A stretch of 64,000 nt of DNA, taken from assembly GCA_043732705.1 (NCBI GenBank), contig JAYTHE010000040.1:3250-67249 (forward strand), read 5' to 3'. The notes beneath the pieces were generated by a model. It was not told the origin of the DNA and searched no databases. It saw only the letters and a program-made list of their open reading frames with translations. Source of the stretch: Candidatus Omnitrophota bacterium (lineage in GTDB: Bacteria; Omnitrophota; Omnitrophia; Omnitrophales; Aquincolibacteriaceae). Numbering within the stretch: position 1 is the stretch's first letter; each line of letters starts with the position of its first letter. The translations under genes and the position numbers were made by a program. Shown here piece after piece: positions 3,191-57,756 of the stretch.

Positions 3191-4885
3191 ATGACAGATG
3201 AAAAAAAGCTCTCAGCGAACGAACGCATCAAGACGGAAAGCCATTACCTGAAAGGTTCTTTGGCCGAAACCATGGCCCAAGACGTTGATCATTTTACTTC
3301 GGATGAAATTCAGCTGATCAAGTTCCATGGTTTTTATGAGCAGGATAATCGTGATGAGCGTGTGACTTTGGCCAAGGCCGGAAAGTCCAAGGCCTTCAGC
3401 ATGATGATTCGCTCGAAAATTCCGGGCGGCTTTTTAAATGCTGAGCAATATCTGGTGCATGACAAGATTGCGGATGATTTTGGTTTAGGGCATTTCCGCA
3501 TTACTGACCGTCAGGGGATTCAATTCCACGGTGTGCTAAAAAAGAACATTAAAGGCCTTTTCCGTGCTTTGAATCAAGTCAAGGTCACGACCATTGGTGC
3601 CTGCGGAGATGTGGTGCGCAATGTCATGTCACCCGCCGCGCCTTTTGTAAAATATCAGAAGCACGGACTTTTGGATTATACGCAAAAAGTTTCAGACCAG
3701 TTTTTATGGAAAAGCGGAACTTACGCAGAGTTGTGGTTGGACGGCAAAAAACTTGATTTAGACGGTGACCCGGAAAAAATCGAACCGATTTACGGGAAAA
3801 CTTATTTACCCCGTAAATTTAAAATCGCCATGGCTTTTCCCGGAGATAACAGCGTCGATGTTTACGCGCATGACATCGGAATTGTGCCTGAAATTCAAAA
3901 TGACCGGTTAACCGGCTTCAACATTCTGATTGGCGGCGGCTTAGGAATGACGCATGGCATTGCTACAACTTATCCGCGTGTTGCAACGCCGCTATGCTTT
4001 GTTAAGCCGGAAGAGCTGCTCGATATCACCAAAGCGATTGTGATTGCACAGCGTGATTTAGGCAATCGTGCTGACCGTAAAAACGCTCGCCTCAAATACA
4101 CGATTGATCGCTTGGGCGCGGATGTTTTCCGCAAAGAAGTTGAGAAACGCTTCGGCAAAAAAACCGAGGATATTCATCCTTTTTCATTTAATGAAATTGA
4201 ACATTATCACGGGTGGCATGATCAGGGCGACGGTAAGTGGTTCTTGGGAATATTTATTCAGAACGGCCGTGTCAAAGATGACGGAGCTTTTAAGCTGCGT
4301 ACGGCTTTGCGCACCATTGTTCAGAAATGGAAATGTAATGTTATTTTGACGCCGGAGCAGGATGTTTTGCTGTCCGGGTTTGAGGCTTCCCAAAAATTCG
4401 AGGTTGAAAATATTCTGAAAGCACATGGCGTGAAGCTTCCGGAAGAATGGGGAACAATCCATAAACATTCAATCGCCTGTCCGGCTTTGCCGACTTGCGG
4501 CCTTGCCATTAGTGAATCCGAAAGATCAATTCCTGCGACCTTGGATGAAATTTATACGAGCTTAAAAGAATTAGGTTTGGAGTCTGAAAAGATTAGCATT
4601 CGCCAAACCGGCTGCCCGAATGGCTGCGCGCGTCCTTATACAGCAGAAATTGGATTTGTGGGTAAAACAACCGGAACTTACAATATTTATCTTGCGGGCA
4701 GCCATTTAGGTGAACGCTTGAATCAGATTTTTCAAGAGAAAGTGCCCAATGCGGAGTTAGCAAAACGGTTAACGCCTGTTTTTAAAATGTTTAAGACGGA
4801 ACGGGCTCCCGGCGAAAGATTTGGGGATTTTTGCAAACGTAAAGGTATTGCCGCGCTGCAAGCCGCGGCGGCGGTGTCAGTATGA
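3191..4885 (+). CDS. Sulfite/nitrite reductase hemoprotein (siroheme 4Fe-4S family, CysI/NirA-like)
   Basis: The NIR_SIR ferredoxin-like and siroheme/4Fe-4S binding regions are present (...CPALPTCGLAISESER..., ...TGCPNGCARPY...). I chose the start at ATG 3191 (MTDEKK) because a TATAAT at 3175-3180 makes the upstream ATG at 3164 unlikely. Confidence 0.7.
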   Translation: MTDEKKLSANERIKTESHYLKGSLAETMAQDVDHFTSDEIQLIKFHGFYEQDNRDERVTLAKAGKSKAFSMMIRSKIPGGFLNAEQYLVHDKIADDFGLGHFRITDRQGIQFHGVLKKNIKGLFRALNQVKVTTIGACGDVVRNVMSPAAPFVKYQKHGLLDYTQKVSDQFLWKSGTYAELWLDGKKLDLDGDPEKIEPIYGKTYLPRKFKIAMAFPGDNSVDVYAHDIGIVPEIQNDRLTGFNILIGGGLGMTHGIATTYPRVATPLCFVKPEELLDITKAIVIAQRDLGNRADRKNARLKYTIDRLGADVFRKEVEKRFGKKTEDIHPFSFNEIEHYHGWHDQGDGKWFLGIFIQNGRVKDDGAFKLRTALRTIVQKWKCNVILTPEQDVLLSGFEASQKFEVENILKAHGVKLPEEWGTIHKHSIACPALPTCGLAISESERSIPATLDEIYTSLKELGLESEKISIRQTGCPNGCARPYTAEIGFVGKTTGTYNIYLAGSHLGERLNQIFQEKVPNAELAKRLTPVFKMFKTERAPGERFGDFCKRKGIAALQAAAAVSV

Positions 4886-14186: not shown

Positions 14187-15434
14187 GTGAATTCTACGGG
14201 TGGACGCCGAGTCGTCGTAACAGGACTCGGCGTCCTTTCTTCTCTGGGGGTTGGTAAAGAGGCTTTTTGGGATGGCCTTGCCAACGGCCGCAACGGAATC
14301 TCCCTCATCACCGCATTTGATACCGCTGAATTTACAACCCGTTTCGCGGGTGAAATTAAGAATTTTGATCCCGCTGCTTATCTTCACGTTAAACAAATCA
14401 AACGTATGGACCGCACTTCTCAATTTGCGGTTGCCGCTTCCAAAATGGCTGTGCAGGATTCCGGAATTGATTTTCAAAAAATGGGCCATGAACGGGTCGG
14501 TGTTGTGATCGGAACAGCTATGGCGGGCCATGGATATATTCTCGATCAGCACACGACCTTGATGAATAAAGGCCCGATGCGCATTAATCCTTTTACCGCG
14601 CTGGCCGGTTTTCCTGACGCATGCGCCGGCAATGTCTCCATAGAACTTGGACTCACAGGCCCGAGCTTTTCAATTTCAACCGCATGTTCTTCCGCATCCG
14701 ACGCGATGGGCTATGCCTTTGAATCCATCCGTTCCGGCAAGCTCGACGCGCTTTTAATGGGCGGTGCGGAAGCATCGATTTATCCCGGAATTTTAGCGGC
14801 ATTTTGCGTCGCGCGTGCCATGTCCACGCGCAATGAGAGTCCTGAAACGGCTTCACGCCCTTTTAGTTTGGATCGCGACGGATTCGTTTTGGGCGAAGGC
14901 GCGGGAATGTTTGTTTTAGAAGAATATGAAAGTGCGAAGGCCCGCAGTGCGCATATTTACGCCGAAGTTTTGGGCGCGGGAATGACTTGCGACGCCTATC
15001 ATATGGTCGCTCCCGATCCTGAAGGCAAACAAGCGGTGCGCGCGATGCGCATGGCTTTGGATACTGCGCGCACGGAACTTGATGAAATTGATTATATTAA
15101 CGCGCATGGAACTTCCACACCGCTCAATGACAAAACAGAAACATTAATTATCAAAAAAGTTTTTGGTGAACAGGCTTATAAAATTCCGCTAAGCTCGACA
15201 AAGTCAATGATCGGGCATTTGATCGGCGCGGCCGGAGCAGTAGAAACAATCGCGACGATTCTCGCCATGGATAAGCAGGTGATTCCGCCGACGCGCAATT
15301 ATTCCGTGAAAGACCCTGAATGTGATTTGGATTATGTTCCGCACACAGCTCGTCCCGCGAAAATTAAAAGAGTTATGAAAAACTCCTTCGGCTTCGGTGG
15401 GAAAAACTCGATTTTAGTTTTGGGAAAAGTTTAA
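14187..15434 (+). CDS. fabF: 3-oxoacyl-[ACP] synthase II (KAS II)
   Basis: ...VVVTGLGVLSSLG... N-terminus, the active-site region ...SISTACSSASDA..., and ...NAHGTSTPLND... / ...NSFGFGGKNS... C-terminal motifs. Confidence 0.85.
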   Translation: MNSTGGRRVVVTGLGVLSSLGVGKEAFWDGLANGRNGISLITAFDTAEFTTRFAGEIKNFDPAAYLHVKQIKRMDRTSQFAVAASKMAVQDSGIDFQKMGHERVGVVIGTAMAGHGYILDQHTTLMNKGPMRINPFTALAGFPDACAGNVSIELGLTGPSFSISTACSSASDAMGYAFESIRSGKLDALLMGGAEASIYPGILAAFCVARAMSTRNESPETASRPFSLDRDGFVLGEGAGMFVLEEYESAKARSAHIYAEVLGAGMTCDAYHMVAPDPEGKQAVRAMRMALDTARTELDEIDYINAHGTSTPLNDKTETLIIKKVFGEQAYKIPLSSTKSMIGHLIGAAGAVETIATILAMDKQVIPPTRNYSVKDPECDLDYVPHTARPAKIKRVMKNSFGFGGKNSILVLGKV

Positions 15435-16853: not shown

Positions 16854-19800
16854 ATGTTTCAATTAAAAAATAAGACTGTTCGCGCATCAGTCGCTGTATT
16901 TACTGCAGTTTGTCTTTCATTTACACAGGCTGCAATTTCAGCGCCTATTTTTTCGGCGTCCGCTCCCGCCGAAGTATCTTTGCCCGATTCACTTCGCCTT
17001 GACCGGGCGGTGGCATTGAAAGTCCCGAGCGCAATCGCAACCATTGAAAAACTTCAGCCCGGTAACGGTAAAACAATTTTTCACATTCAAACCGCTCACG
17101 GACATTATCAGGCTCAGCAAAATATTAATTTGCTTCTCAAAGATCTTGAAAAAAATTACGGTGTCAAAACGGTTTTGGTTGAGGGTAGTTCGAATCCACT
17201 TAATCCCGAAATTATTAACTTTTTCCCCAAAGATCATGAGAAAACCATGCGCGTTGTTGATTTGCTTACGCGCAAAGCGATTTTAAAAGGTTCTGAAATT
17301 TATTTGCTTGAGTCCGGAAAAGCCCGCGGGTTTGGCATTGAAGATGAGGTCGCTTACAATCAAAACCTGCAAGACTTCGCTTTGGTCATTCGCGCGCGTG
17401 AAGAAAGTAAACAGTTTCTTGATAACCTCGAGCAAAGCATTGAAAGGCTTTCCGCGGTTTATCTCAGCACGAATTTGCGCTCGTTTTTAAAGCAAGTTGA
17501 AAGAAAAGAAACCGGTAATATTCCGTTTGATGCTTATTTGCAGCAGCTTAAAATTGCCGCAAAAAAATATGCCGAAATTGACCTTGCTGATCCGGCCTGG
17601 CAATTGCTGTGGCCCATGCTGACGCGTGTTTTTACGATTGAAAAACTCGAAAAGAAAATCGATGCGGTACAGTTTGATCAGCAGAAAAAAGATTTTCTCA
17701 CCGCCATTAAACCGTATACCGCCGTGGAGATTCCTCGGGAGTGGGCGAAGAACTCTCCCGAGGTGGCGCAGCGGGTTTCAGTCTATGAAGAAGTTAAAAG
17801 CCTCCTGGATTTAAAAGACTTAAGCGCTAAGCTTCCTGATCCGGACACGTCAATTCTTTTTGAAAACCTTGTGAAGTCCTTGCCCGCTAACTTCAACTAT
17901 GCCCGCTTTTCTTCCGTGACTTCCTTCTGCGGTATCTTGATGATCAAAAGTGAAATCAAGGCTGACGTGTTAACTGCTGAAATTTCAAAAATGGAAGATC
18001 AAATCACCGATAAGCTTGCTGAAAAGAAAACAGCCAAGGAACTTGTTGCCGTTCTTAAAGATTACCGCATGCTTCAAAAGCTTTTTTCGCTTGAGCTTGC
18101 GCCTTCTGATTATGAAGTAATCGCGGGATCGGAGACCGGCGGCCGGAGGCCCGAGAGCATTCAGCCATCTGTTCTTGCTAATCGACTTCAAACTCTTGGG
18201 GCTTCGGCCTCCAGCCTTCCAGCTAAACAAGTTCGCGGAGTTAAATTTAACCACGTCAAAGAATTAGATAGTTTGTTCAACCAAGCGTTGAAATTTTATG
18301 CCGGCGCGCGCCTTCGTGATGGAAAAATGCTCGCACGTATCGAAGAACGTTTAAAAGAAACCCATGCCGACAAAGTGGCTGTTATCACGGGCGGTTTTCA
18401 CTCTGAACCTTTTGCGAAATATTTTGAGCAGCGCGGCTATAACTATGCTTTGATGACCCCGAAAATTACTACCGTTGACGCCGAAGGGCGTAATGACTAT
18501 TTGAATGCCATGATGATGCTGGCAACCGCACAGCGATTGCAGGCTCGGAGGCTCGAGGCCCGAGGCCCGAGAACTGAATCCGCCACCATTGAAGGCAAGA
18601 GTGTGGCTGCAATGGATGCAGTAGAGCTCAGTTTACTTGCTAAGCCTGTTTCCGAAATTGTACGCAGCGAGCCGTCACTTAGTGTTGAAGCAACCGCGGT
18701 GCGTGCCCTCTGGTCAACCGAAAAATCTTCTTTACATTCTGCTTCTTCTTCAGCATCAAGCACGACAAGAGCAACAGCACGCGTTGAAATTACTGGCGCC
18801 CGCTCCGAAATGCGCGTTTCCGAATTTCCTAAGCTTGGGGAAATACCGCTGGAAGTTGATGCCTCTCAAGCAGAAAAGCAGGTTTTTATTGGTAAAGAGG
18901 AATGGCTTGGCGACCGTGAAAATTTGCAGCCGATTTTCATTCAAGGCAGAGGCTATTTGGCGATTATAGTAACTGGACCCGGGAAGTGGAAAGACAATGT
19001 AATAACCTCATTTTTCATTTCATATGATGCTGGCGGAAAAATCAACAACGTGGTTTCTCTTCCCGGCGGTAGTTTTCATGCGAAATCTAAACAAATCGAC
19101 GTGAAAGTTTCTGTGATCGATGAGTTTGCAACTGCGACCGATGTTCAGCTTTGGGTGACTTTAAAAAATCGCAAAGCCCGTATATTTCGAATTAAGGAAG
19201 ATAAGGGGGGCGAATTTGCCCTTTACAAAGCGCTTAAAGCTTTAATCACTTCCCAAAAGCGGACAGTTTCGGTAGCTGATGGAAATGCTGGAATCAAAAA
19301 AGCAAAATCTCAAATTGTGGACGCATTAAAAAACTTAGAAAGTAATCCCACTTACCAACAAGCGCAAAGACTGTCCCACTCCAAAACTGCGCCGAAACAG
19401 CGTTCAGAACGGGTCATCACCGATTACCAGCGAACGGTGCGAGGACTTGCGCTACTTCCTTCTCGCTCCGAAGCGCGCAAATTTTCCGACGTCGCTCGTT
19501 TTGTCGTCGGGAAGTTTGTTAATGCGGTGATGATTACAGGCCTAGCTGTGGCGGAAATCGTGAGAATAACTTTTTTGTCTTTTTTGATGCTGTCCTTCGC
19601 TTACGTGGCGAGAGAAAGAGCTCAAGGACCCAATAAAACTCCTCTTCAGAATAATGAGGCTGTTCGTGGGAATGTGGTTAATCTGGAGATAATCGGCCGC
19701 CACCGCTCCGAAATGCGGCCATTTATACATCCCGAGAGGATTTCTAATGATTTAGATTTGCTAACGGCTGTGCAAGCTTCAAGAGAGTATCAATCTCTCG

Positions 19801-22800
19801 ATAAGGGTGATGAGTTTTTCGTTTCCTTCTACTTGGGGCATGACCTTGTGGGCTGGATTAGAGCGCGGCGCGAGAAGGGCGAGCAACCTTGGCTTAGCAG
19901 TTACAACCGTCGCAACGATCCTGAACATAAAATGATAGGTTCCATGGCTAGGGATGCCGAAGAAAAATATGTCAGCGGCGGGAATCAAATCAACGAACTC
20001 ATTAATTTAATGCATGAAGAATCGGTCGCTCGGAAGCCGCATATTTATTTGTCAGACGAACATCCCCTGGTTCGCTACAGTAAAAAACGCCAAGCAATAG
20101 TAACTAAAACAATTGCAAGGCTTCAAAGCGCAGAAGCTGGGTTATTAGCTTTGAAAGCACAGCTGGATCGGTCAGTTGACGCACGGCAACCTGAGCCGGA
20201 AAAATTCGATCAAGAGCGATTCAATAGCGCTGCCACAGAAAGATTGGTTCAAAAATTTATTCAGCCTGCCATCGAAAATTTAAAGCTGGGCAAGTTGTCC
20301 GATGCATGGAAGTTGATTCAAACTGCAATTGGTTTGATGAACGATACAAACGGGCTGGAAAGCGGCGATGGATTGAGGGTGATTCAGTTACTTCGTGCGA
20401 CCCGAAACGCAATCAGTATATTTGCTGATAAGTACGGCGAGATAGTTCTAGAAGCAGATATGCGCGCTGAAACTGCTGAAGCTCGCTCCGAAGTGCGAAC
20501 AGTCACGCTAAGAGTTTTAACGGCGGCTATTATGGGATTCGCATTTTCTGCGATTGCGGAGCAAAAACCCGTGGCGCCGCCCGTGCTGCGTGCTGCTACG
20601 GACACGGATCCTCAATTGCTACGCAAAATCGAAGCAGTTCTTCGCCAGCCCATGCCCACTGGAAACTCAGCAGGTGCTATCCAAAGTCGAAAAAATTTAG
20701 AGACTGCCAAGGAAGCAGCGCTTAAAGAGTTGGCCGGAATCTCCAATCCCTCTGCTCTTTATGGATTATTGGCGGCACTTTTAGGAGATAAAAATCATCC
20801 CGCTTCATTGAAAGCGTTAGTTGCGGAAACGCTTAAAAAGGGTTTAGAAGCGCCGCAGTCCTCTTCTACGGTCAACGCGGTATTGAAGATTTTGTTTCAA
20901 ATTGCAAAGGATAAAAATAACCCGAATAGGACGCAAGCCATTGGAGTGCTTTCTCAAGCCGCTGAAAAGCAACGAGCGGTCATCGGTGAATTTGGAATGA
21001 GGGAAGTCAGGCTCATAATCGATGGTGCTGATAAAGAAGCTGCAGCCAAGCGTAATCTCCTTATCGCCGAACAGGAAAAAATCATCCGTGCCGTTAACCC
21101 AGCAGATAAGGAAGCCTGGGAAAAAAGAAAGAATGCACTTCTTGTTTTGCGCGGCTTCGTAGAAGATCCGGCTTTTACGCCGGGAGACAGAAGCAACATT
21201 CTCAAGCTTGTTGTTGGCTATTTGATAAGTGCTCCCGATGCAGTCGATCAACAGAAAGGAAAAGATCAAAATGGCCCTTGGGCTAAAGTAGCTGCAGCTC
21301 AGGTTCTTGAGTCAATTGGCGGAAATGAGGCTCGTGACGCTTTAAATCAATTTGTCACTGATCCGGCGCAAGATCCAAAGGTTAAAGCGGATGACGCTTT
21401 CCAGAAGGTTCTTAAAAAATTCTCAGGCCGCTCCGAAATGCGCACGCCTGAAATTACAAACGTTCGCTTTGTTTTGCCCAGCAAGATTCAGGGGAATCAA
21501 GTTCGATCTGCGGCAGCTTACGCGGTTGAAGAGGGATTACTAACGGGAACTGAGTCGTGGTGGCAAGAAATTCATACGCGGGGCAATTTAGATTTGACTC
21601 AACGCATTCTAAATGATTCGCCCAAGTTTTCGTATGAGGAATTATCGAGGTTCGCGCGCGCTTTGCCACCAGCCACGGCTTATGTCGTCGTCGTGAGAAA
21701 AGGAGATTTTGAACAAGCTAAAGAATTTTTATCGATCAAGCGGCCGATGATTTTTTTGGTTGAAGATAAAGCCGATGAAGAGGGATTGAGGAATTTAGCG
21801 ATTAAGCAGTCGGTTGCACATCTTGTTTCAGTAGCTTATGTTTCTGATTGGAAAAAAGAAAATGTTGCGTCGCTTGTGCGCGAAGAATTAGACCGAGTCG
21901 ATGGCCGTGATTTAGTGCCCCGTTTAGACCGAGTAAATATTTATTTGTCCGGGCATCTGTTAGATAGTACTAATGAAGGAAACGCACGGGCCATGCTGGC
22001 GGACAAAGGTGGGTTGTTGCGGGAGCGAGTTGGGAGTTTAGCTCGTTATTATAGATTGTATGGAGGGCAAATAAAAAGTCCTCTAAAAAGCTGGGCTGAC
22101 TTTGATGTTGCAGCAGGTAAAAATTCTCTTGAAATTATTCGTTCCGAATCGCGAGCAACTGTAACAGAAATTGAGTTTACGGGAGAAGTTCTGGTTCCCT
22201 GGCGTATCGAACTAAAATTAAAGGACGGGAAATCGGTTGAGCTTAAACTGAATCAGGAAAATAAGGCAGCGGCCAAAAAGATGTTCGCTCAAAGCTTACC
22301 TATCAGACCGCTTGTTTATACAATCAATGATGCTAGTTCAGGCACAAATTTCGGAAGTATTCAAATGAATCTTAATGAGAATCCTAAAGATCTTACAGAG
22401 AAAAATCAAATAAGCGACATCCGTATCGTTAAAGATTCCGTGGCCGTGTCTGGAAACAATACCCTTGTTAAAGAAGTGAAAGCATGGTTGGAAAGTTTTG
22501 AAAAAGAGAAGCAGGCCTTTGAGGGTAAGAGCTTAAAGCTTTCTCCTTTTCAAGTTGACGATATTCCTCTCGAAACGAAATTTCATCCGGTAACCCATAG
22601 CCTTATATCAGCTCGATTAAATTTTAGAGGGAATAATCCGGTTCAAGTGGGACTTGAGGCTGATTCTGCAAGTCTTGTGGCGATGTCAAGCGCAGGCGCT
22701 GAGCCGCGCGAAACAAGAATAACTTTTGATGTGACTGTTAGAAAACCGCTTACTTTGCCGCAGCCCGTGGGAAAAATTCATGCTACCGCTCGTGTCAGCA

Positions 22801-25800
22801 CAAATGGTTTTACATTAGATGAAGTTCGTAAAACGCAAACAAATCCTGCGGCCGTTGATGCGCAGGGCATTGTTTCTACGGCTGCGGCATGGCTTGCAAC
22901 TGAAGATCTTAGCGAGAGCAATCCAAGACTCCAGCCGGCCCCCGCCCGCTCCGAAGTGCGGGGCGATGCAACCCAACCTGTTGGCGGAAATCTTTTTACT
23001 AGACCCATGCCCCGGCGTGATGCTCTTAAGACGGCGGGTTTGCTTGGATTGATATCAGCTTTGGGCAGAACACATGTCATCGGCGCAACGGGTGATGTTT
23101 GGTTTGGTGATTCAAATTCGGCAAATCTTGCTTACACGAGCGAGCAATTTGTTAACACCGCAGATGGACGTACTTTTTGGATTTTTGTTGCGAAGCAGAA
23201 TATTCAATTTCAAACCAAACCTGATTTGCAGAACGCTGCTTGGTCTCCCTTATCTGGCACGCTTGCGGATGGAAATGTGGCCGTTATTGAACTGCCTAAA
23301 AGTGCTAATGGCAAAACAGGTTTTGGGCGCGTTGCTCGCGCTACGACGCCATCTCAGAATCAAAGACAGGCAATAACCCAGCTAAGTAATTCCAAGCCTT
23401 TGCCGTCGGAAGTACAAACAATTTTGAATTCAAAGGCTTACGCGGGCAAGAAAGTGACTGTTGTCCAACGCTCCGAAGTGAGGGGAACAGTTTTTCAAAT
23501 TGTAGATGCGTTTGAGGTATCGAAAACAGAAGCGAATTCCGAAAGTGGAGCCTATGCTGGCCCTTACTTATTGCCATTTTTGGAGCGAATGCCGGAACGG
23601 TTCAAATTTTATAAAGCGCTTCCTCAAAGTATTAATTTTGTTCACCCTATGGATGAGACCGATATTGGAGCCGTCAATTTTTTTGCCTCCATTAACACGG
23701 CATCGAAAGTGGATACAAGCAGTCTAGGTGCGGTGAAGGCAAGACGGTTCAAATTTGAAGATGAGTTCGTCGGAAAAGAAATGCTTTTTGTTTACGATAC
23801 TACAGCACAAGAAATCCATTCTATTTTCGCCCTTGATTCCAGAAACAGAATCGTAGGGGGAATCATGTTTAAGAAGTTACCAAGCGATATACTCAAACCC
23901 GAACGGCCATTTCCATTGGATCCAATTATGACGCAGGCTCTTGACCATGCCGGAGAGAGCCGGGTGCCTGCTAAAATTAAGTATAGTCCTCAAACAAAAG
24001 ATTTGGAGATTGAGTTTAATACTGTGGCTGAGCCCGAGCAGCAAGTTGGGCCATCTCTGCCTGACGCTATTTTAAAATTTAATTCTGGGTACGAAGGATT
24101 CACGGATAAGCCCATCGATTCAGCCGATGGAGCGCATGAATTTACTTTTGACACCATTGCAATAGCGGCACAGGGCCTGGATGAGCTTATTGAAAGCATT
24201 GCCCAATTAGAGGGTAATGAGGGTGTAAGTAGTGTTTACGAAAGAATCAAGGCACCACAGGGACGGATCTCTTTAATTTTTGATTCAAAAAATAATCTTT
24301 TAGCAATTCAATCTGGTGCGGCGGGAGCTAAAGCACGAGATGCTATTGTTTTTGAAAAGAAATCGGGTGCGATCTCCGAAGTTGTGGCGCGATCGAGCGC
24401 GATGGCACAAACCTTAACTGTTTTACCTACCGTTCCTGCGCCGATCAAAGGCTTATTTGGTTTTAGTGGAAAAGATCACTGGATTACTTTTACTGCGCGC
24501 TCGGAAGCTCGTTCTCAAACCGGTGGAGCCGTACGTAACGAATGGAAAATTTCGACGAAAGGTCGTTTTTCTGCCATAAGCCCCACAGGGAAAATGATTT
24601 CATTGGGTGAACGTTCGCCGTTTGAGCGTGTTGTTGAGAAAAGAGTAATTGGAGACAAGCTGATTGTAGTTACGCAAGATCCCAACCAAAAAAATTTGCG
24701 AGTTTTTAATCGGGAGGGGAAAGCTCTTCAGTTAGGTGAGTTTAATGTTATTTATGCTTTTAAGGAGTACCGCGTTGTTGGTGGTGATCGGTTAATCGTT
24801 CGCATGCGGGACGCCGGCTCCCTTTTTATTTATGATTTGGCAGACGGATCTCAAATACCTTTGGATGGCCACCCTGCTATTCGTGATAGCGGATCCATTT
24901 TGACAAATGAAATGGACGTGCGTGGCAATACTGTTTATGCCCTACATGACGGTAGTTGGTATGGTTATTCAATTCGAACCGGAAAATTAGTTAGGGATGG
25001 GCATCCGACCAAACGTGGCACAGCCTATATACCAACCGGGCTAGATATTGCTTGTTACGGTGTCATCGCAGCAATGATTGCGATTGGCTCGCTTCTTATA
25101 CCCTTAGCACATCCGAATGGGGTCAATTTTGCAGCGACCCTAGCTCAAATTGTTTCCCGCTCCGAAGCGCGGCTGTACACAAATCATGGTGGTAATGAGC
25201 CGCTTAAGCAGTTCCAAGAAGATGTTCAAGCTGGAAAAATTTCTCGTGGTAGCTGGCTTGAAGTCCGGCTCAGCAGAATTGCCGCCGTCCAAAAAGGACA
25301 ATTCGAGGGTTTCGAAAACGGGCAGCTGATACTCAAAGATAGCCGTTTCAATCCTCCCGCGATGAATGAACATTTTAATCTCAAAGAAATTGAAGCCATC
25401 GTCGTGAGGGGGCAATACGAGCATTACTTCAATATTGGGAAGAGTTTGGCAATATTTTTAATCCCGCTGTTCCTCTCTTTCGTCATAGCTTATAAATATA
25501 ATCTTCATCGAATGGGGATGGCTGTTTCGGCCACGATAGCTGTGGTTGCTAGTTTTATTTTGTCGCGTTTTCTCCCCGCTTCTGCTCCAGTGGAAGTTGT
25601 TGCTGTCGCAGAAAAAATTAAGGATATCATTGCCAAGCGTTTGGGCGCCAACCCAGAGGTTGTGACGGAAGACGCTCAGCTTGTCGAAGGTTTGAATGCC
25701 GATTCCTTGGATCTTATCGAGCTTATTAATAAAATTGAATCGCAATTCAAGATAGATATTTCAGATGCTGAAGCAGAAAGACTTGCCACAGTCGGTGATT

Positions 25801-28800
25801 ATATTCAACTTGTACAAAAAAAACTCGCCCGCTCCGAAGCGCGAGAAGATTATCGTCCTCAAAAACCAGGTGAAGAAAAACCGGCGCCGGGTATGTTCGG
25901 TCAAACACGCGTATTTGGCCGCTCCGAAATGCGGGAAATTCTCGCAGCATTTCCGACGGAATCACCGACGCACGTCGATTTTGAAAGACTATTTGCCGCC
26001 TACTTGAGCGATGTTTATACAGCTTGGAAAATTGACGGCGATGACATTAAAGATAAAGCCGATCGCGCATATGTGAAGCAGATGGCATTGCAGCATTTGC
26101 GCCAAAGATTTTTAGGCACAGGCACGGTCGATCCGAATGGGCCGAAGGCACCTTTGCATATTCGCCGTAATAAGGGATCGCTGAACGTGGTTTCAGCCGA
26201 AGGTAATGCCGTAGTCACTTCGCAGTTAACCTATAATGAATTGCGCGAAGCGGGCGCGTATAAGCGTTCTGACCTTGATACTGATCCTAGAAGAGATGAG
26301 TATCTTAAGGCTGCTTCAGGAGCTTGGGTTACTTGGAATACATTGGATGGCGGCATCGGCGAAAGTTTAATGCGTGAAGAATGGTTGCTGAATAAGGGGC
26401 TGAGGATGCGCTTGAAGGATATTCTCTCTCAAGCTGAGCAAGCGGATACGAAATATCAAGGTCCATTGGCGGCGCTTAAGCAAGCTGAAGAAAATGGTGA
26501 AACCGAAGAAATTATTAAAGCGCTGCGCGAAATTGAAAAATTAGCCGGTTATGCAGATCCGCTTCAATTGAAAATGGGCGCAAAAGGGACGGATCTTGGC
26601 CGCTCGGAAACGATTCGCGGTAATCAATATTTTGTTGGTGATGCGGAAAGACGTTTGCTCTTAATCGCGGATATTGCGACCAAGAGAAAATTCGGGAAAA
26701 TTGCCTTTCAGCCGTTTGTGAATTATCAATCCGCAGAATCTTATGTAAATCTTATGCAGCAGCCCTATCTATGGGATGTGATTGAAGGTAGTGAACATCC
26801 CCGGACTTATCAGCAAGCTCTCGAAGATGCCGGAGTTGAGATTAAAACACCGCTTGAACAGCAAGATTTGCCTAAATTTGAAATTGAAGACGGTGCGAAG
26901 GCCGGGCTTCCGACTTTGGATTCAAAAGTGCAAGATAAAGGCCAGCCGGGCGGACATGGACAATGGGGCGCTTTTTATATGATGGATTTCACCGAAATTG
27001 CTCCGCCAGATAATGGTTTTCATAATGTGCGCTTTTTTGGTAACGGTGACAACAATCATGGAAATCCCGAGCCGATTGTCGTTGGTTTTGCTATCGTTCA
27101 AAAGAAACCCATTTTGAAAATTACGACACCTGCTACCGCGATTGATACGAAGGGCGGAAAAGAAACCCTGCGTCTCATTCAACTTAAGGAACGGGTGACC
27201 AGAGTTTTGGATCAATGGGAAGAAATTGGCGCTAAAAACGCGGGACAAATTGACTTATTTTACAAAGCAGGGCAGCGCGGCGGTTTTGGCGAACAGGGCC
27301 GGCAGCATTTCAACACCAACTTGTTCGTATTTGATGAAGAGCAAATGCATCCGATTTTAAGAAAAATGCGTGAAATTGTCGGTGAGGATGAATTTTTAGA
27401 TGCGGTTATGCCGCTGTTGTTTGATAAAAGTGATAAAGCCAAAACTATTGACGGTAAAAAATTCGTATCGATGGACTCAGCCATTGGATATGTCATTCAT
27501 AATTTGAATACGTTTTACAGCACCGATCCACGGCTTGAAGAATTGCGCCGGGAATACGGCCCGCAATTGCTTTATTACATGGATTATGATCGTGGTATTT
27601 TTGCGCCCAAAAAGAAGGCCGAAGATCAATACCTGCAAGAGCGTACGGATTATTATGGTCCTTTTGATGAGGAGGCTAAAAATTTCCATGATGCCGAACC
27701 CGGGCTGACACCACCGGGGTTTGATGTTACCGATCCGGTCGAAAAAGACAGCAAAAAAGCCGATTCAAAATTTTGGGGCGAAGTGCAGCATTGGAATGAT
27801 TCGTTTGGAATATCGCGTGTCAGAAAAATGCAATCACTGAAGGTTGAAGGGCGTGTGACGATTCGCAATGCCGAGTATGTCGGGGATGTCGTGATTATCA
27901 ATCGTTTTGGCCGTGAAGACAAAACAAAACCCGCCAAACGCGTTATTTTAAGCAATGGTGTTTATTTCGAACAATTGAAAGCACTCGGTTATTGGGCCGA
28001 AGATCATTTGCTCTTAGAGAATGTGACAATCACGATTGATGAAAGTGGAATTCTGTCGACAAAACCAACCCGCTCCGAAATCCGGAATTTGGATGAGCTA
28101 TTAGCTGAATTGAATAAAGCCGTTCGAGCACCTCTGAATTACAGAGGTGCCGATGCTATGCCGCCAACGACAACGCTAGTCGCACTTGCGCCTAATTTGA
28201 ATGTTGTTATTCAAGTGAGGGATGGAGTTGGCACATCGAGAACAGTGCTTACTTATACTTTAGGAGCAAGAGAATTAGAAACAAGAAATGTATTGCCTGG
28301 CGGACGAAACGCACAGAGCTTCCCTATTGGCGGCGTGGCGTCGTATACCGTTAATTTTCAATTGCCTGCGGCTGACGATGCGAAGGTCGTGGCAGATGCG
28401 CTTAAGCGCGGGTTGCCTCAGTTCGTGACTGGCGATTTTAACGTAGTGCCAGCAGGCAATTCCGGAAGCATCGCCATTACTTTTACACCGAAACGCACAC
28501 AACGTACCGAGTTGATTGAAGCCGCTATTCCTCAAGTTATGGAAGCAATCTATCAGCTGGCGAGGTCAAGAGGGCGGAAAGTCGTAGATTATCAGTTGGT
28601 GGGCTATTCCGGTATCGTATCGAAACAGACATACGGTGCAATGGACCGCTTTCCGGTTACTTTTTCCGCCGAAACCGAACAAATAAGACAAGTGGTTCGC
28701 GCGGCGCTTGATAAAATTTTAGATCATTATGCTGATGGCAGGGTTGAATCCATTGAGGTGAAATTGCAAGATGACGCGCTCACAACAAGCGAGACCCCGT

Positions 28801-30635
28801 CTATCGCCATTGTTTTGAAAACCCGCTCTGAACTGCGGGATCTTAAGTCTGAGCCAATTTTGCTTGGAAAATTCACCCCATTTCTTATCGCTGGCGAAAC
28901 GGAGGACCCTCTCGCAATTACACCTCAGCTGGATGAGTCAAAGCAGGCTGTTGGAAATTTACAGTTTCGCAAAGTCCACTTGGGCAATTTGTCAGCTACA
29001 GCTATCGAAGAAATTAGAGATGCACTGGGACAATCAGGCCTGGACCGCGGTCATCAGGCGTTTTTTGAAAGTAATGCAAGCGGACTTGAAAAAGTTGACG
29101 CCGTAATTCGCAGCGATGGACTTTTAACTGCTTTGATCGGAAAGCAAGCGGGACATGGCGCTGTAACGCATATTGAGTTTGCGGTTCCCCTCGTTTATGT
29201 CGGAGAATATACAGTTCGGCTTGGTTATCCATCACATGGAACTTTAACAATTCCAATTGCGAGTGTTGTCAAAATTGACACAGCGGGTGGCATCATAAAT
29301 ATCGTTGCAATTGAGCCCGTGACGTCTGCCGCACGCTCCGAATTGCGGCTTCAATTGGCAGACAATACTAATCCGCAGGTACGCGCAATTGTTAAACCAT
29401 CCCTCGTTAAAGCTAGAGTAACAACTCCGGATCAATTTAATGTTCCAATTGCTGCAGGGCAAAGTATTGCAGATTCTGTGCAATCGTTTGTCTCAACTAA
29501 TTATGGACATCAAAACTTGAATGATTTGCTTGCTAACACAGGTTCCACGGGTATTAAAGTTACCTTTTTAAATTCCAAGAAAGGAATACTGTTCAGTACG
29601 GAGCTTCATTCAGATCCTTCACCAGCGGGACGAGGTACTCAATATACCGTTCTCAATTCATTTGGCACAAGAAAACCAAACATGATTACGAGCGTTTTAA
29701 TTGAAGTTGTGCGCAGCGAATTGCGCGAGCAAGTTTCGCAAAGACAGTCATCTGTTGAAACGCTCAGCGAAATTTTGCTCGATTTTAAAGCCGGAATTCT
29801 GCCTTATAATGAACTTGTCGATTTATTGAAGGGTTCGCCTGCCCAGGTTTTATTGGATGCCGCAAAGGCTGCCGGAATTGATTTGAAGCTGCCCGGCAGT
29901 ATCGATAACAGCACAGAGGATGTGCTTTCCGCGCTTTTCCCAGTGGACTTAAATGAGGCGATTACAATCAATGTTCCAAAAATTACGGTGCGTGTCAATA
30001 ATGAAAAACCGACTTCGAAGAATATTACGGGAGCGGTGATTCAATCGGCAGAGACGGTGATTGCGATGAAAAAGCAAGCTCCTCAAGCGTTGATTGCACA
30101 TTTGCGCGCTTTAAGTGAAAGAGAATTTTTGGATTTGGCGATTTCGGATAAGCCCGGTGCCGAATCTAAATTTGACTCTGCGTTGAAACAGTTTTTAGGC
30201 TCGGCAGCCGCCGGTGTTCCAAGTCTTGAGGAAAGAAAAATATTGTTTGGGAAAATTCGGCTCCATACAAAAGCAAGCCTGGCTGCTTTTGTTAAAGATC
30301 AAGGCGGGGCAGTTGCAATTATGCTGACAGGCCATAACGACGAAATTTTTACCAGTCTCCAAGGCGGTTTTCGCTTTAAAGTGAAAGGCGCGAAAGGCAA
30401 AGCTCTTTCTGGAAAGGCCTTTTTTGCCATGCCGGTTGTCAGTGTCGGCGCCGCAAAAGTTATGGCGAATATACGCGGTGTTGATGTTTCAATTGCCAAC
30501 TCGGCTATCCCAACGTACTTTAAAGCGCTTGATATGCAGGTTAACCGTGATAGTGACGGAGCGTTTGTATTCAGTGCGATCGCCCAACTTCTGCAGGCCA
30601 TTTTTAACGCTCAATACATCGGAACCATGGCTTAG
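16854..30635 (+). CDS. Giant secreted/membrane multidomain protein (4593 aa). It carries a signal peptide and at least four predicted transmembrane segments. Recognisable regions are a ChaN/Tiki-like N-terminal region, HEAT-like repeats, a beta-propeller-like region, an ACP-like domain and a UDP-sugar-pyrophosphorylase-like domain. A periodic RSE-hydrophobic-R motif recurs throughout.
   Basis: A single uninterrupted ORF in the six-frame track with the N-terminal signal peptide MFQLKNKTVRASVAVFTAVCLSFTQAAISA. Domain calls are from my reading of motifs (see findings). Confidence 0.8.
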   Translation: MFQLKNKTVRASVAVFTAVCLSFTQAAISAPIFSASAPAEVSLPDSLRLDRAVALKVPSAIATIEKLQPGNGKTIFHIQTAHGHYQAQQNINLLLKDLEKNYGVKTVLVEGSSNPLNPEIINFFPKDHEKTMRVVDLLTRKAILKGSEIYLLESGKARGFGIEDEVAYNQNLQDFALVIRAREESKQFLDNLEQSIERLSAVYLSTNLRSFLKQVERKETGNIPFDAYLQQLKIAAKKYAEIDLADPAWQLLWPMLTRVFTIEKLEKKIDAVQFDQQKKDFLTAIKPYTAVEIPREWAKNSPEVAQRVSVYEEVKSLLDLKDLSAKLPDPDTSILFENLVKSLPANFNYARFSSVTSFCGILMIKSEIKADVLTAEISKMEDQITDKLAEKKTAKELVAVLKDYRMLQKLFSLELAPSDYEVIAGSETGGRRPESIQPSVLANRLQTLGASASSLPAKQVRGVKFNHVKELDSLFNQALKFYAGARLRDGKMLARIEERLKETHADKVAVITGGFHSEPFAKYFEQRGYNYALMTPKITTVDAEGRNDYLNAMMMLATAQRLQARRLEARGPRTESATIEGKSVAAMDAVELSLLAKPVSEIVRSEPSLSVEATAVRALWSTEKSSLHSASSSASSTTRATARVEITGARSEMRVSEFPKLGEIPLEVDASQAEKQVFIGKEEWLGDRENLQPIFIQGRGYLAIIVTGPGKWKDNVITSFFISYDAGGKINNVVSLPGGSFHAKSKQIDVKVSVIDEFATATDVQLWVTLKNRKARIFRIKEDKGGEFALYKALKALITSQKRTVSVADGNAGIKKAKSQIVDALKNLESNPTYQQAQRLSHSKTAPKQRSERVITDYQRTVRGLALLPSRSEARKFSDVARFVVGKFVNAVMITGLAVAEIVRITFLSFLMLSFAYVARERAQGPNKTPLQNNEAVRGNVVNLEIIGRHRSEMRPFIHPERISNDLDLLTAVQASREYQSLDKGDEFFVSFYLGHDLVGWIRARREKGEQPWLSSYNRRNDPEHKMIGSMARDAEEKYVSGGNQINELINLMHEESVARKPHIYLSDEHPLVRYSKKRQAIVTKTIARLQSAEAGLLALKAQLDRSVDARQPEPEKFDQERFNSAATERLVQKFIQPAIENLKLGKLSDAWKLIQTAIGLMNDTNGLESGDGLRVIQLLRATRNAISIFADKYGEIVLEADMRAETAEARSEVRTVTLRVLTAAIMGFAFSAIAEQKPVAPPVLRAATDTDPQLLRKIEAVLRQPMPTGNSAGAIQSRKNLETAKEAALKELAGISNPSALYGLLAALLGDKNHPASLKALVAETLKKGLEAPQSSSTVNAVLKILFQIAKDKNNPNRTQAIGVLSQAAEKQRAVIGEFGMREVRLIIDGADKEAAAKRNLLIAEQEKIIRAVNPADKEAWEKRKNALLVLRGFVEDPAFTPGDRSNILKLVVGYLISAPDAVDQQKGKDQNGPWAKVAAAQVLESIGGNEARDALNQFVTDPAQDPKVKADDAFQKVLKKFSGRSEMRTPEITNVRFVLPSKIQGNQVRSAAAYAVEEGLLTGTESWWQEIHTRGNLDLTQRILNDSPKFSYEELSRFARALPPATAYVVVVRKGDFEQAKEFLSIKRPMIFLVEDKADEEGLRNLAIKQSVAHLVSVAYVSDWKKENVASLVREELDRVDGRDLVPRLDRVNIYLSGHLLDSTNEGNARAMLADKGGLLRERVGSLARYYRLYGGQIKSPLKSWADFDVAAGKNSLEIIRSESRATVTEIEFTGEVLVPWRIELKLKDGKSVELKLNQENKAAAKKMFAQSLPIRPLVYTINDASSGTNFGSIQMNLNENPKDLTEKNQISDIRIVKDSVAVSGNNTLVKEVKAWLESFEKEKQAFEGKSLKLSPFQVDDIPLETKFHPVTHSLISARLNFRGNNPVQVGLEADSASLVAMSSAGAEPRETRITFDVTVRKPLTLPQPVGKIHATARVSTNGFTLDEVRKTQTNPAAVDAQGIVSTAAAWLATEDLSESNPRLQPAPARSEVRGDATQPVGGNLFTRPMPRRDALKTAGLLGLISALGRTHVIGATGDVWFGDSNSANLAYTSEQFVNTADGRTFWIFVAKQNIQFQTKPDLQNAAWSPLSGTLADGNVAVIELPKSANGKTGFGRVARATTPSQNQRQAITQLSNSKPLPSEVQTILNSKAYAGKKVTVVQRSEVRGTVFQIVDAFEVSKTEANSESGAYAGPYLLPFLERMPERFKFYKALPQSINFVHPMDETDIGAVNFFASINTASKVDTSSLGAVKARRFKFEDEFVGKEMLFVYDTTAQEIHSIFALDSRNRIVGGIMFKKLPSDILKPERPFPLDPIMTQALDHAGESRVPAKIKYSPQTKDLEIEFNTVAEPEQQVGPSLPDAILKFNSGYEGFTDKPIDSADGAHEFTFDTIAIAAQGLDELIESIAQLEGNEGVSSVYERIKAPQGRISLIFDSKNNLLAIQSGAAGAKARDAIVFEKKSGAISEVVARSSAMAQTLTVLPTVPAPIKGLFGFSGKDHWITFTARSEARSQTGGAVRNEWKISTKGRFSAISPTGKMISLGERSPFERVVEKRVIGDKLIVVTQDPNQKNLRVFNREGKALQLGEFNVIYAFKEYRVVGGDRLIVRMRDAGSLFIYDLADGSQIPLDGHPAIRDSGSILTNEMDVRGNTVYALHDGSWYGYSIRTGKLVRDGHPTKRGTAYIPTGLDIACYGVIAAMIAIGSLLIPLAHPNGVNFAATLAQIVSRSEARLYTNHGGNEPLKQFQEDVQAGKISRGSWLEVRLSRIAAVQKGQFEGFENGQLILKDSRFNPPAMNEHFNLKEIEAIVVRGQYEHYFNIGKSLAIFLIPLFLSFVIAYKYNLHRMGMAVSATIAVVASFILSRFLPASAPVEVVAVAEKIKDIIAKRLGANPEVVTEDAQLVEGLNADSLDLIELINKIESQFKIDISDAEAERLATVGDYIQLVQKKLARSEAREDYRPQKPGEEKPAPGMFGQTRVFGRSEMREILAAFPTESPTHVDFERLFAAYLSDVYTAWKIDGDDIKDKADRAYVKQMALQHLRQRFLGTGTVDPNGPKAPLHIRRNKGSLNVVSAEGNAVVTSQLTYNELREAGAYKRSDLDTDPRRDEYLKAASGAWVTWNTLDGGIGESLMREEWLLNKGLRMRLKDILSQAEQADTKYQGPLAALKQAEENGETEEIIKALREIEKLAGYADPLQLKMGAKGTDLGRSETIRGNQYFVGDAERRLLLIADIATKRKFGKIAFQPFVNYQSAESYVNLMQQPYLWDVIEGSEHPRTYQQALEDAGVEIKTPLEQQDLPKFEIEDGAKAGLPTLDSKVQDKGQPGGHGQWGAFYMMDFTEIAPPDNGFHNVRFFGNGDNNHGNPEPIVVGFAIVQKKPILKITTPATAIDTKGGKETLRLIQLKERVTRVLDQWEEIGAKNAGQIDLFYKAGQRGGFGEQGRQHFNTNLFVFDEEQMHPILRKMREIVGEDEFLDAVMPLLFDKSDKAKTIDGKKFVSMDSAIGYVIHNLNTFYSTDPRLEELRREYGPQLLYYMDYDRGIFAPKKKAEDQYLQERTDYYGPFDEEAKNFHDAEPGLTPPGFDVTDPVEKDSKKADSKFWGEVQHWNDSFGISRVRKMQSLKVEGRVTIRNAEYVGDVVIINRFGREDKTKPAKRVILSNGVYFEQLKALGYWAEDHLLLENVTITIDESGILSTKPTRSEIRNLDELLAELNKAVRAPLNYRGADAMPPTTTLVALAPNLNVVIQVRDGVGTSRTVLTYTLGARELETRNVLPGGRNAQSFPIGGVASYTVNFQLPAADDAKVVADALKRGLPQFVTGDFNVVPAGNSGSIAITFTPKRTQRTELIEAAIPQVMEAIYQLARSRGRKVVDYQLVGYSGIVSKQTYGAMDRFPVTFSAETEQIRQVVRAALDKILDHYADGRVESIEVKLQDDALTTSETPSIAIVLKTRSELRDLKSEPILLGKFTPFLIAGETEDPLAITPQLDESKQAVGNLQFRKVHLGNLSATAIEEIRDALGQSGLDRGHQAFFESNASGLEKVDAVIRSDGLLTALIGKQAGHGAVTHIEFAVPLVYVGEYTVRLGYPSHGTLTIPIASVVKIDTAGGIINIVAIEPVTSAARSELRLQLADNTNPQVRAIVKPSLVKARVTTPDQFNVPIAAGQSIADSVQSFVSTNYGHQNLNDLLANTGSTGIKVTFLNSKKGILFSTELHSDPSPAGRGTQYTVLNSFGTRKPNMITSVLIEVVRSELREQVSQRQSSVETLSEILLDFKAGILPYNELVDLLKGSPAQVLLDAAKAAGIDLKLPGSIDNSTEDVLSALFPVDLNEAITINVPKITVRVNNEKPTSKNITGAVIQSAETVIAMKKQAPQALIAHLRALSEREFLDLAISDKPGAESKFDSALKQFLGSAAAGVPSLEERKILFGKIRLHTKASLAAFVKDQGGAVAIMLTGHNDEIFTSLQGGFRFKVKGAKGKALSGKAFFAMPVVSVGAAKVMANIRGVDVSIANSAIPTYFKALDMQVNRDSDGAFVFSAIAQLLQAIFNAQYIGTMA
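18542..18572. repeat. GC-rich tandem 7-8 nt repeat (GGCTCGGA GGCTCGAG GCCCGAG GCCCGAG) inside the giant gene
   Basis: Read directly; it encodes ARRLEARGPRTE. A related GC-rich block GGAGACCGGCGGCCGGAGGCCCGAGAGC lies at 18131-18158. Confidence 0.7.
25608..25826 (+). other. Acyl-carrier-protein-like domain embedded in the giant protein (phosphopantetheine-attachment DSL motif)
   Basis: AEKIKDIIAKRLGANPEVVTEDAQLVEGLNADSLDLIELINKIESQFKIDISDAEAERLATVGDYIQLV matches the ACP consensus (LGxDSLD...ELV...E..F...I.D......TVGD..DYI). The candidate Ser codon TCC is at 25704-25706. Confidence 0.6.
25921..28067 (+). other. UDP-sugar pyrophosphorylase (UDPGP family)-like domain embedded in the giant protein
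   Basis: ...VTWNTLDGGIGESLMRE... (about 26343) resembles the UDPGP G-rich loop (LNGGLGTSMG). ...GQPGGHGQW... (26946) matches the PGGHGD motif. The C-terminal part resembles the left-handed beta-helix tail of UGPase. Confidence 0.5.
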
Positions 30636-56279: not shown

Positions 56280-56972
56280 ATGATTTATACCACCCTGCTT
56301 TTTTTTACATTTTTCTCAGCATTATTTTCACCGCTTGCATTGGCGGCGGACGATAAGCCGCTTCTGCCGGAAATTTACTTGAACGGAAAAATTCAAAATC
56401 CGACGGTTCAGGAACTGGGTGGCATAGGTACAAGGCCATTGCGGCTCTTGGTTGAAAAAAACAACAAGGCTCATGGGGATGAATTAATTCAAGTTTATGC
56501 CATGGGAACGCGTGAAGGCGATTATTTTAGAATAGCATTAGTTCCTCCTGCGCCCGGTACCCGCGTAACGCTTTACAAATTAATAAAAAATCCGGATGGT
56601 GACCGCTTTTTTACACTGCCCATTTCAATTTATTACGGCGAAAAAGGAGAGGCGGCTTATCATGAGAAAATCGCGCCGTATATATCGGAATATCTGATCA
56701 TTGCTTTTGAGCAAACAGAGTCGCCCGGTAAAAAAAGCAATAATCAACTTTATTTTGAAGAGCGCGCGAGAAACTTGGCCGTTAAATCCATTAAACCCAA
56801 TATCAAACTTTCGTCTTTAAAATTAAAAATGAAAGATGTCGCGAGCCAAGAGAAGTCTTTTACCTATGACGCGCAGGAATTGATCGACCGGTTTATTAAT
56901 CCCCAAAGAATTTTTGTGGTCAGGCTTTGGAAAGATGAACGCGTTGTTAATCCGGCACAGGACTCATTATGA
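56280..56972 (+). CDS. Hypothetical secreted protein
   Basis: N-terminal signal peptide (...FSALFSPLALAADD...). I recognise no motif. Confidence 0.4.
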   Translation: MIYTTLLFFTFFSALFSPLALAADDKPLLPEIYLNGKIQNPTVQELGGIGTRPLRLLVEKNNKAHGDELIQVYAMGTREGDYFRIALVPPAPGTRVTLYKLIKNPDGDRFFTLPISIYYGEKGEAAYHEKIAPYISEYLIIAFEQTESPGKKSNNQLYFEERARNLAVKSIKPNIKLSSLKLKMKDVASQEKSFTYDAQELIDRFINPQRIFVVRLWKDERVVNPAQDSL

Positions 56973-57562: not shown

Positions 57563-57572
57563 ATTAAAAACT

Positions 57573-57640: not shown

Positions 57641-57756
57641 TTCATTCATGCCCTGGTGGGTAGAGGCTAGAAGCGGTTAAACGCTTTTGCGTTTCCTGTT
57701 TTAAAAACTCCCGGGGTTCGGCAAAGCTGATCCCCGGGAGTTGAGATGGTAAAAAA

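Follow-up and report, generated by a model that had tools for sequence, protein, structure and literature searches.

Eukaryote-type UDP-glucose pyrophosphorylases (UGPases) share their reaction and a Rossmann-like nucleotidyltransferase core with the bacterial GalU-type UDP-glucose pyrophosphorylase, RmlA, GlmU and AGPase. They form one clade of the UDPGP superfamily (Pfam PF01704), other clades of which are USP and UAP1/AGX1, and are represented by solved enzymes from T. brucei (TbUGP, PDB 3gue), L. major (LmUGP, 2oef), human (UGP2, 3r2w) and Arabidopsis (1z90). From Omnitrophota, giant proteins have been described whose long open reading frames (ORFs) string together metabolic enzyme domains, including those of sugar metabolism (bioRxiv 10.1101/2023.11.21.568195; 10.64898/2026.06.07.730766); the sugar-metabolism module reported for them comprises phosphoglucomutase (PGM), starch-synthase, GT1 and ROK-kinase domains (10.64898/2026.06.07.730766). 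Post-translational cleavage has been suggested for these giants, with the cleavage points stated to be unknown (10.1101/2023.11.21.568195). Here we analyze a stretch of 64,000 nucleotides (the window) from a Candidatus Omnitrophota bacterium (assembly GCA_043732705.1, contig JAYTHE010000040.1, positions 3,250 to 67,249 of the forward strand), in which a giant ORF carries a UGPase-like module bracketed by two copies of a short motif, RSExR. Unlike the eukaryote-type enzymes, this module is bacterial (Omnitrophota/PVC), lies inside a protein of 4,593 amino acids (aa) rather than being free-standing, and has its nucleotide-binding loop split by a helical insertion of 74 residues. The giant comes from the same phylum as the published ones, which are of at least 10 thousand aa (10.64898/2026.06.07.730766) or still larger (10.1101/2023.11.21.568195), and searching the text of those two reports turned up neither a UDPGP-type module nor a TIKI-like module at the N-terminus; recurring boundary motifs, RSExR or any other, were likewise absent from it. 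The best explanation of the whole, to which we give a probability of roughly 0.7, is a divergent UDPGP-superfamily module with an intact active site, with RSExR marking unit boundaries in this clade.

An earlier note on this DNA, made from the letters alone, had placed a UDPGP-like unit at 25921-28067. The location holds, but that start is one base off the codon phase, so that a translation of 25921-28067 runs into stop codons, and the correct unit is 25935-28070. The four peptides quoted in it all lie in one reading frame of the giant: GAWVTWNTLDGGIGESLMRE (aa 3156-3175, nt 26319-26378), KGQPGGHGQWGAFYM (aa 3362-3376, nt 26937-26981; 206 aa beyond the first), FVSMDSAIGYVIHNL (aa 3537-3551) and VEGRVTIRNAEYVGDVVIINRFG (aa 3664-3686). 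The principal features, with module residue 1 being giant aa 3028, are as follows.

16854 to 30635, plus strand: giant ORF, 4,593 aa, carrier of the UGPase-like module, with 16 RSExR motifs and hence 17 segments
25920 to 25934, plus strand: RSEMR, aa 3023-3027, N-terminal bracket of the module
25935 to 28070, plus strand: UDPGP-superfamily (UGPase-like) module, 712 aa, aa 3028-3739, identified from relatives, profile and structure model
25935 to 26324, plus strand: N-terminal domain, mostly helical, module 1-130, from the secondary structure of the model
26343 to 26360, plus strand: LDGGIG, G-rich nucleotide-binding loop, aa 3164-3169, corresponding to TbUGP Gly85/Gly86 (PMC3270307; 8c0b alignment)
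26361 to 26582, plus strand: 74-residue insertion splitting the nucleotide-binding loop between G142 and K217, with three helices (module 148-203) in the model
26583 to 26585, plus strand: invariant Lys K217 (giant K3244) in GAKGTD, the presumed end-of-loop Lys
26946 to 26963, plus strand: PGGHGQ, in which H341 (giant H3368) corresponds to TbUGP His192
27042 to 27053, plus strand: NGDN, module 370-373, corresponding to N219-G220-D221-N222 of TbUGP/LmUGP (SEQRES index for TbUGP; Gly221 in paper numbering)
27144 to 27158, plus strand: DTKGG sugar-binding loop, module 404-408, in which K406/G408 correspond to TbUGP Lys256/Gly258
27219 to 27221, plus strand: E429 (giant E3456), corresponding to TbUGP Glu281, a glucose OH-2 contact
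27309 to 27320, plus strand: FNTN, module 459-462, in which N460 corresponds to TbUGP Asn303, a glucose OH-4 contact
27600 to 27614, plus strand: FAPKK, in which K560 (giant K3587) corresponds to the catalytic Lys377 of TbUGP, Lys380 of LmUGP and Lys367 of potato UGPase
27717 to 28070, plus strand: C-terminal beta-helix-like domain, module 595-712, from model strands and alignment to the UGPase C-terminal domain
28071 to 28085, plus strand: RSEIR, aa 3740-3744, C-terminal bracket, the site where the free-standing relative P0002 ends

The place of the module among known enzymes emerges from its relatives. A word-indexed protein search recovered a partial Omnitrophota protein of 58% identity that has RSExR motifs of its own; as such searches yielded 2-4 relatives per query, 1.84 billion representatives were searched exhaustively by profile, which returned 318 clusters (at 50% identity) at E ≤ 0.001, 207 of them at E ≤ 1e-30. 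Many of these relatives are embedded in proteins of 2-8 thousand aa, and many others stand alone with a length of about 600 aa. Five polypeptides (P0022, P0028, P0032, P0083 and P0105) carry two UGPase-like modules each. The hosts of the close relatives (58-65% identity) are all Omnitrophota metagenome-assembled genomes, and one relative of 34% identity is from a Planctomycetales metagenome-assembled genome. With its 318 clusters the family can hardly be called rare among uncultured bacteria, contrary to the earlier description of it as uncommon in bacteria. The free-standing P0002 (717 aa), which is 33% identical over 97% of the module, matches PF01704 at 5.4e-11 with 42.3 bits (gathering score 22), and 33 of the 40 aligned relatives pass this family. 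A profile built from the 40 sequences matches 16 distinct sequences in PDB, all of them eukaryote-type UGPases (best E = 1.3e-22), in alignments that span both the catalytic core and the C-terminal beta-helix; no USP or UAP in PDB matches it at E ≤ 0.01. The AlphaFold2 model of the module on the same alignment (mean pLDDT 87.5, pTM 0.89) shows the three-domain fold, with an N-terminal domain, a Rossmann-like core and a C-terminal beta-helix whose strands lie at module 632-711. Foldseek places UGPases in the top 33 positions among PDB structures (E from 6.6e-22 to 1e-16), followed by USP at about 5e-12 and UAP1 at 2.5e-10 or weaker, so that these two clades are clearly farther from the module than UGPase. 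Taken together, the relatives in PF01704, the profile matches to PDB and the Foldseek matches assign the module to the UDPGP superfamily, nearest to the UGPase clade; the proposed family membership, its structural alignment to UGPases and the C-terminal beta-helix are thereby borne out.

To examine the active site we mapped the published UDP-glucose contacts of TbUGP (PMC3270307) onto the module through HMMER alignments, in which the SEQRES index is the paper numbering minus 1. Every listed contact, the catalytic Lys included, has a counterpart. Around the base, the uracil-stacking Gly85/Gly86 and Gly191 correspond to G139/G140 and G340, and the uracil contact Gln163 to Q309; the ribose contact Gly221 corresponds to G371 in NGDN. 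The beta-phosphate contacts His192 and Lys256 are represented by H341 and K406, and the catalytic Lys377, which contacts the alpha-phosphate and equals potato Lys367, by K560. On the sugar side, G408 and N460 take the places of Gly258 and Asn303 at glucose OH-4, and E429 that of Glu281 at OH-2. Across up to 148 modules of the family these positions are 93-100% conserved, bar Q309 (kept in 103 of 138), G340 (109 of 144) and D372 (D in 126 and E in 15 of 145). Thus K560 is present in 138/138 modules and K217 in 125/125, and each is also found in all 40 sequences of the aligned set, as is E429 (138/147 overall); the counts for the remainder are 144/145 for H341, 143/145 for N370, 147/147 for D404, 141/147 for K406, 146/147 for G408, 146/148 for N460 and 147/148 for N462. 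Orthologues hence retain the active-site residues, among them the catalytic Lys, whose conservation the earlier note had wished to see checked. Such retention of substrate contacts across diverged modules is the pattern that would be expected of an active enzyme.

The nucleotide-binding loop is where the family departs from the known enzymes. In TbUGP the canonical loop runs only from Lys82 to Lys97 (PMC3270307). In the module G140 and G142 are invariant among the 40 aligned relatives, the T-x-M-G part of the canonical loop is replaced, and 74 residues intervene before K217, which would be the counterpart of the loop Lys of TbUGP. The same stretch measures 9-37 residues in most of the subfamily, and 62 and 93 in two others. 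To judge from these alignments, the modules represent a separate bacterial subfamily in which the nucleotide-binding loop is interrupted between GGxG and its terminal Lys.

The second component of the finding concerns the motif that brackets the module. The giant contains 16 copies of RSExR, against 0.07 expected from its composition (Poisson p ~3e-32), and those at aa 3023-3027 and 3740-3744 flank the module just as the earlier note had it. There is none in the 14,310 aa of the other ORFs of the window or in the approximately 21,800 aa of the ORFs flanking three related giants, and we found no mention of the motif in the literature. The motifs, together with the two further conserved or recognizable parts of the giant that they delimit, are located thus.

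18801, 19464, 19704, 20484, 21429, 22140, 22947, 23469, 24498, 25158, 25830, 25920, 28071, 28824, 29334 and 29712, plus strand: nucleotide starts of the 16 RSExR motifs
16854 to 18800, plus strand: segment 1, aa 1-649, with a hydrophobic helix at the N-terminus and, after it, a hydrolase module resembling the TIKI/TraB/EreA superfamily
25602 to 25823, plus strand: AcpP-type acyl carrier domain, about aa 2917-2990, at the C-terminal end of segment 11 (Pfam PP-binding 1.4e-11; TIGR00517)
25830 to 25844, plus strand: RSEAR, aa 2993-2997, followed by a Pro-rich spacer of 25 aa up to RSEMR(3023)

At least two RSExR motifs are found in 13 of the 150 relatives listed, with the largest counts being 12-22. 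All related RSExR giants that reach upstream of the module have a motif at its N-terminal boundary, 89-141 aa ahead of the G-loop, and the C-terminus of the free-standing P0002 coincides exactly with the start of RSEIR. A 5,896-aa relative, P0135 (L005 10001-27691), has, besides a UGPase-like module, two separate RSExR-delimited segments with enzymes, one with a complete acetate kinase (Pfam 5e-110) and the other with a phosphoglucomutase. The unit ends marked by RSExR thus match those of free-standing enzymes or domains in the case of UGPase-like modules, acyl carrier protein (ACP), PGM and acetate kinase. Some giants of other lineages, which lack RSExR, display other over-represented short motifs at the same place: GARL at 1398 before the module start at 1403 in P0015, GARL at 1157 and ARLA at 1783 around the module at 1170-1779 in P0026, and SEAR at 2025 next to the module start at 2024 in P0030. 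By exact 4-mer enrichment, boundary motifs of this kind are recovered in only some of the non-RSExR giants.

In the window the codons of the motif are nearly always CGC TCC GAA NNG CGN. Within the giant CGC is used for the first Arg in 15/16 copies, TCC in 13/16 and GAA in 16/16, which is far more uniform than the codon usage of the ORF; gene conversion or a local codon preference possibly accounts for this. In four related genomes the codons vary synonymously, serine being encoded by both TCN and AGY, and therefore the constraint on RSExR acts at the peptide level. These synonymous codons rule out a nucleotide- or RNA-level signal such as a small hairpin, and internal starts at the x position (ATG, GTG or TTG in 9/16 motifs) are ruled out by the CTT, TTA, GCN and AAT codons that relatives have there. 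The 9-mer CGCTCCGAA is otherwise confined to the giant and has a single intergenic copy at 57606-57626, in a small ORF that ends in RSELAA before its stop and resembles a tmRNA tag. A link to tmRNA was discarded, as ARAGORN and Rfam find neither a tmRNA nor another RNA family in the window, and this copy is probably a chance match.

Several points weigh against the reading of a UGPase-like module with RSExR at its boundaries. PF01704, proposed earlier as a check, gives no match to the module sequence even at E ≤ 10, and NCBIfam gives no UDPGP match at E ≤ 0.01; the Pfam gathering threshold is an operational cut-off and no biological criterion. The identity to solved UGPases is only 13-18%, and the module, taken alone, scores below the Pfam threshold. 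The two hallmark motifs that had been claimed survive in part: the G-rich loop is there as LDGGIG, and reads LDGGIGES against the canonical GGLGTSMG, but the second motif is PGGHGQ and not PGGHGD, with a terminal Q in place of the D. In the syntenic orthologue the downstream motif lies about 200 aa farther on, so the C-terminal bracket is not fixed. Finally, domain searches detect no glycosyltransferase or PGM in the giant or in the rest of the window.

If RSExR marks unit boundaries, the question arises as to what happens there. The possibility that the motifs are not cleavage sites, and that the giant stays whole as a beads-on-a-string multi-enzyme in which RSExR serves as a linker, docking or modification motif, is a serious one, and we put it somewhat short of an even chance. 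There are well-known examples of giant multi-domain proteins that are not cleaved, the Ser of the motif, with Arg on either side, could be modified, and the shift of the downstream bracket in orthologues also suits this view. Against it, the units delimited by the motifs correspond to entire free-standing enzymes (acetate kinase, PGM, and the UGPase-like module and the ACP at their C-termini); in 13/43 motifs a hydrophobic stretch resembling a signal or anchor begins within the next 30 aa, compared with 9.3% expected (p ~1e-4); and the use of GARL or SEAR at the same boundary in other lineages would be expected if sites co-evolve with a protease. The Tat-like RRDALK at aa 2053 would furthermore need a free N-terminus, and N-terminally complete giants start with a TIKI-family hydrolase-like module. 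Two of the signal-like stretches internal to the giant are the Tat-signal-like PRRDALKTAGLLGLISALG (with RRDALK; aa 2053-2071, nt 23010-23066), 16 residues after RSEVR(2032), and the Sec-signal-like TVTLRVLTAAIMGFAFSAIA (aa 1216-1239, nt 20499-20570), directly after RSEVR(1211).

We tentatively raise the converse proposal, for which the odds are against rather than in favor, that the giant is a true bacterial polyprotein, cut at RSExR by the N-terminal TIKI-like hydrolase or by a trans-acting protease, with the GARL and SEAR sites of other lineages co-evolving with the protease. In such a scheme the giant would be a precursor that is cut at RSExR into separate proteins, freeing the UGPase-like enzyme, an ACP tethered to the membrane and roughly a dozen rapidly evolving proteins, of which some would have Sec- or Tat-type signals of their own. 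The boundary motifs, signal-like stretches and lineage-specific motifs would fit such processing, and the TIKI-like module is possibly its agent. In architecture alone the closest parallels are MARTX toxins and viral polyproteins, which likewise have modules between short recurring sites in a long precursor with a protease module in cis, and the MARTX effector RRSP has a TIKI fold like that of segment 1. The giant has, however, no sequence relation to MARTX repeats or to the MARTX cysteine protease domain, and its cargo is of a housekeeping type (UGPase-like and ACP here, acetate kinase and PGM in relatives), and its processing is hypothetical.

Turning to the enzyme itself, the preferred reading of a UGPase-like activity implies that UTP and a gluco-type hexose-1-phosphate would be the substrates: UMP would be moved from UTP to the sugar phosphate, yielding pyrophosphate and a UDP-hexose that is probably UDP-glucose. 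If the module binds its substrates as TbUGP does, the alpha-phosphate would be held by K560 and the beta-phosphate by H341 and K406; uracil and ribose would be bound by Q309 together with the G-loop, and the sugar by E429, N460 and G408. Like the ACP domain next to it, the module would act on the cytoplasmic side of the membrane. The earlier note took the giant protein to be secreted; for the module the cytoplasm is the better location, because the stretch from the ACP domain to the module is free of hydrophobic segments, and because both the function of ACP and the need for UTP favor it. The UDP-sugar product would feed glycan synthesis. A phosphoglucomutase (Pfam PGM_PMM I-III) resides in the same polypeptide as the module in P0135, and P0028 is named phosphoglucomutase in IMG; the P0002 gene (L001 715-2868) stands directly downstream of a gene for uracil phosphoribosyltransferase (L001 2-499; Pfam 9e-55). 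The neighbors of P0002 include no homologues of the other giant segments. These PGM fusions, the published set of sugar domains and the uracil phosphoribosyltransferase neighbor point to nucleotide-sugar supply for glycan synthesis.

It is conceivable, if unlikely, that the same fold and type of chemistry serve other substrates, such as GlcNAc-1-P, Gal-1-P or uronic acid-1-P on the one hand and ATP or GTP on the other, with a specificity that is USP/UAP-like or born of the insertion. The GGIGES loop, the terminal Q of the His motif and the 74-residue insertion do imply that nucleotide or sugar specificity, or regulation, could differ from that of UGPase. Speaking against other substrates, the sequence-profile matches in PDB are to UGPases and to no USP or UAP at the threshold used above, and the glucose OH-2/OH-4 contacts E429, N460 and G408 are all present along with the uracil contact Q309.

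A more distant alternative is a pseudoenzyme or scaffold, in which the UGPase fold has become a binding or structural unit of a giant envelope-associated protein; we consider this very improbable. The host protein does have an N-terminal hydrophobic helix and several membrane segments, the segments around the module mostly lack recognizable enzyme domains, and an insertion as large as that in the nucleotide-binding loop might prevent catalysis. All catalytic and substrate-contact residues are nevertheless kept, at most positions in 93-100% of about 140 diverged modules, and the module is the best-conserved part of the giants. Between close Omnitrophota giants it is 58-67% identical, as against 25-60% for the N-terminal segment 1. 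Segments other than 1 and 13 have no match in related giants, the syntenic orthologue included (blastp E < 0.01), except that the C-terminal segment 17 matches one relative, P0067; identity of 58-67% in the module while other segments beyond segment 1 no longer match indicates purifying selection on it. The stretches at 18816-25919 and 28086-30632, about 70% of the giant, are without similarity to related giants at this threshold, yet the frame is open throughout. These dissimilar segments appear to evolve very fast, and the sole Pfam match among them is HEAT_2 at aa 1216-1525. Lastly, the idea that the UDPGP likeness arose by chance, from two short glycine-rich motifs on an unrelated fold, which draws on the lack of a direct Pfam or NCBIfam match, has next to no probability and is refuted by the relatives in PF01704, the PDB profile matches and the Foldseek structure matches.

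As for the other recognizable parts of the giant, segment 1 displays the alpha/beta TIKI fold. Its H82 and E110 appear invariant and lie 28 residues apart, the same spacing as H85/E113 of Bcr135 and H3902/E3930 of RRSP, and H516 in TGGFH seems nearly invariant; the first Glu of the 2His/2Glu motif is not evident in the alignment. N-terminally complete giants begin with this kind of module, and the UGPase-like module is the best-conserved part of an Omnitrophota/PVC class of giants that start with a TIKI/EreA-like hydrolase module. The ACP-like domain noted earlier next to the UGPase-like module is genuine: in addition to the PP-binding match it scores 74.1 bits against NCBIfam TIGR00517 acyl_carrier, above the equivalog cutoff of 70.45. 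Its DSL serine is aa 2951, within NADSLDLIEL (aa 2948-2957), and the domain is followed by LA and then by RSEAR at aa 2993. This housekeeping-type AcpP domain stands in the unit at 25173-25829 (aa 2774-2992) after two hydrophobic helices at aa 2861-2907, and a FabF gene (14187-15434) is found just upstream of the giant. The syntenic orthologue, P0008, has no PP-binding match.

A protein identical to the giant is present in public collections as P0003. The gene lies in an ordinary chromosomal setting, in the order ScpA/B, PheA, HisC, TyrA, ribosomal protein S1, FabF, LpxA, the giant, TyrRS and an ABC transporter, with IleRS and menaquinone genes farther downstream. The relative P0008 (4,489 aa) occupies the same syntenic position in another assembly, and unbroken module-bearing giants exist in several independent assemblies; therefore the ORF is not an assembly artefact. 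At the 3' end of the housekeeping region (56969-61346) are genes for a YqaJ-like viral recombinase domain, a YgjP-like metallopeptidase and an AAA_22 ATPase, which may be a mobile-element remnant.

In sum, the module represents a known kind of enzyme in a new and divergent bacterial form, and belongs to a bacterial subfamily of the eukaryote-type UGPase fold, with at least 318 clusters at 50% identity, which the standard domain libraries miss in this sequence. It provides a candidate nucleotide-sugar activation step for Omnitrophota giants that are known to carry phosphoglucomutase, hexokinase/ROK kinases and starch-synthase/GT1. The more novel lead is the conserved pair of a TIKI-like and a UGPase-like module, with hypervariable segments between them and lineage-specific boundary motifs, for which a mechanism can be proposed from sequence. 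As only these two modules are conserved, apart from a C-terminal segment in one relative, while the remaining 70% or so has diverged beyond recognition, the giants are likely to be built around them. The RSExR brackets suggest, in a form that can be tested, the points at which such giants may be cleaved, and if these are indeed polyproteins, this would be the missing cleavage-point rule for the Omnitrophota giants.

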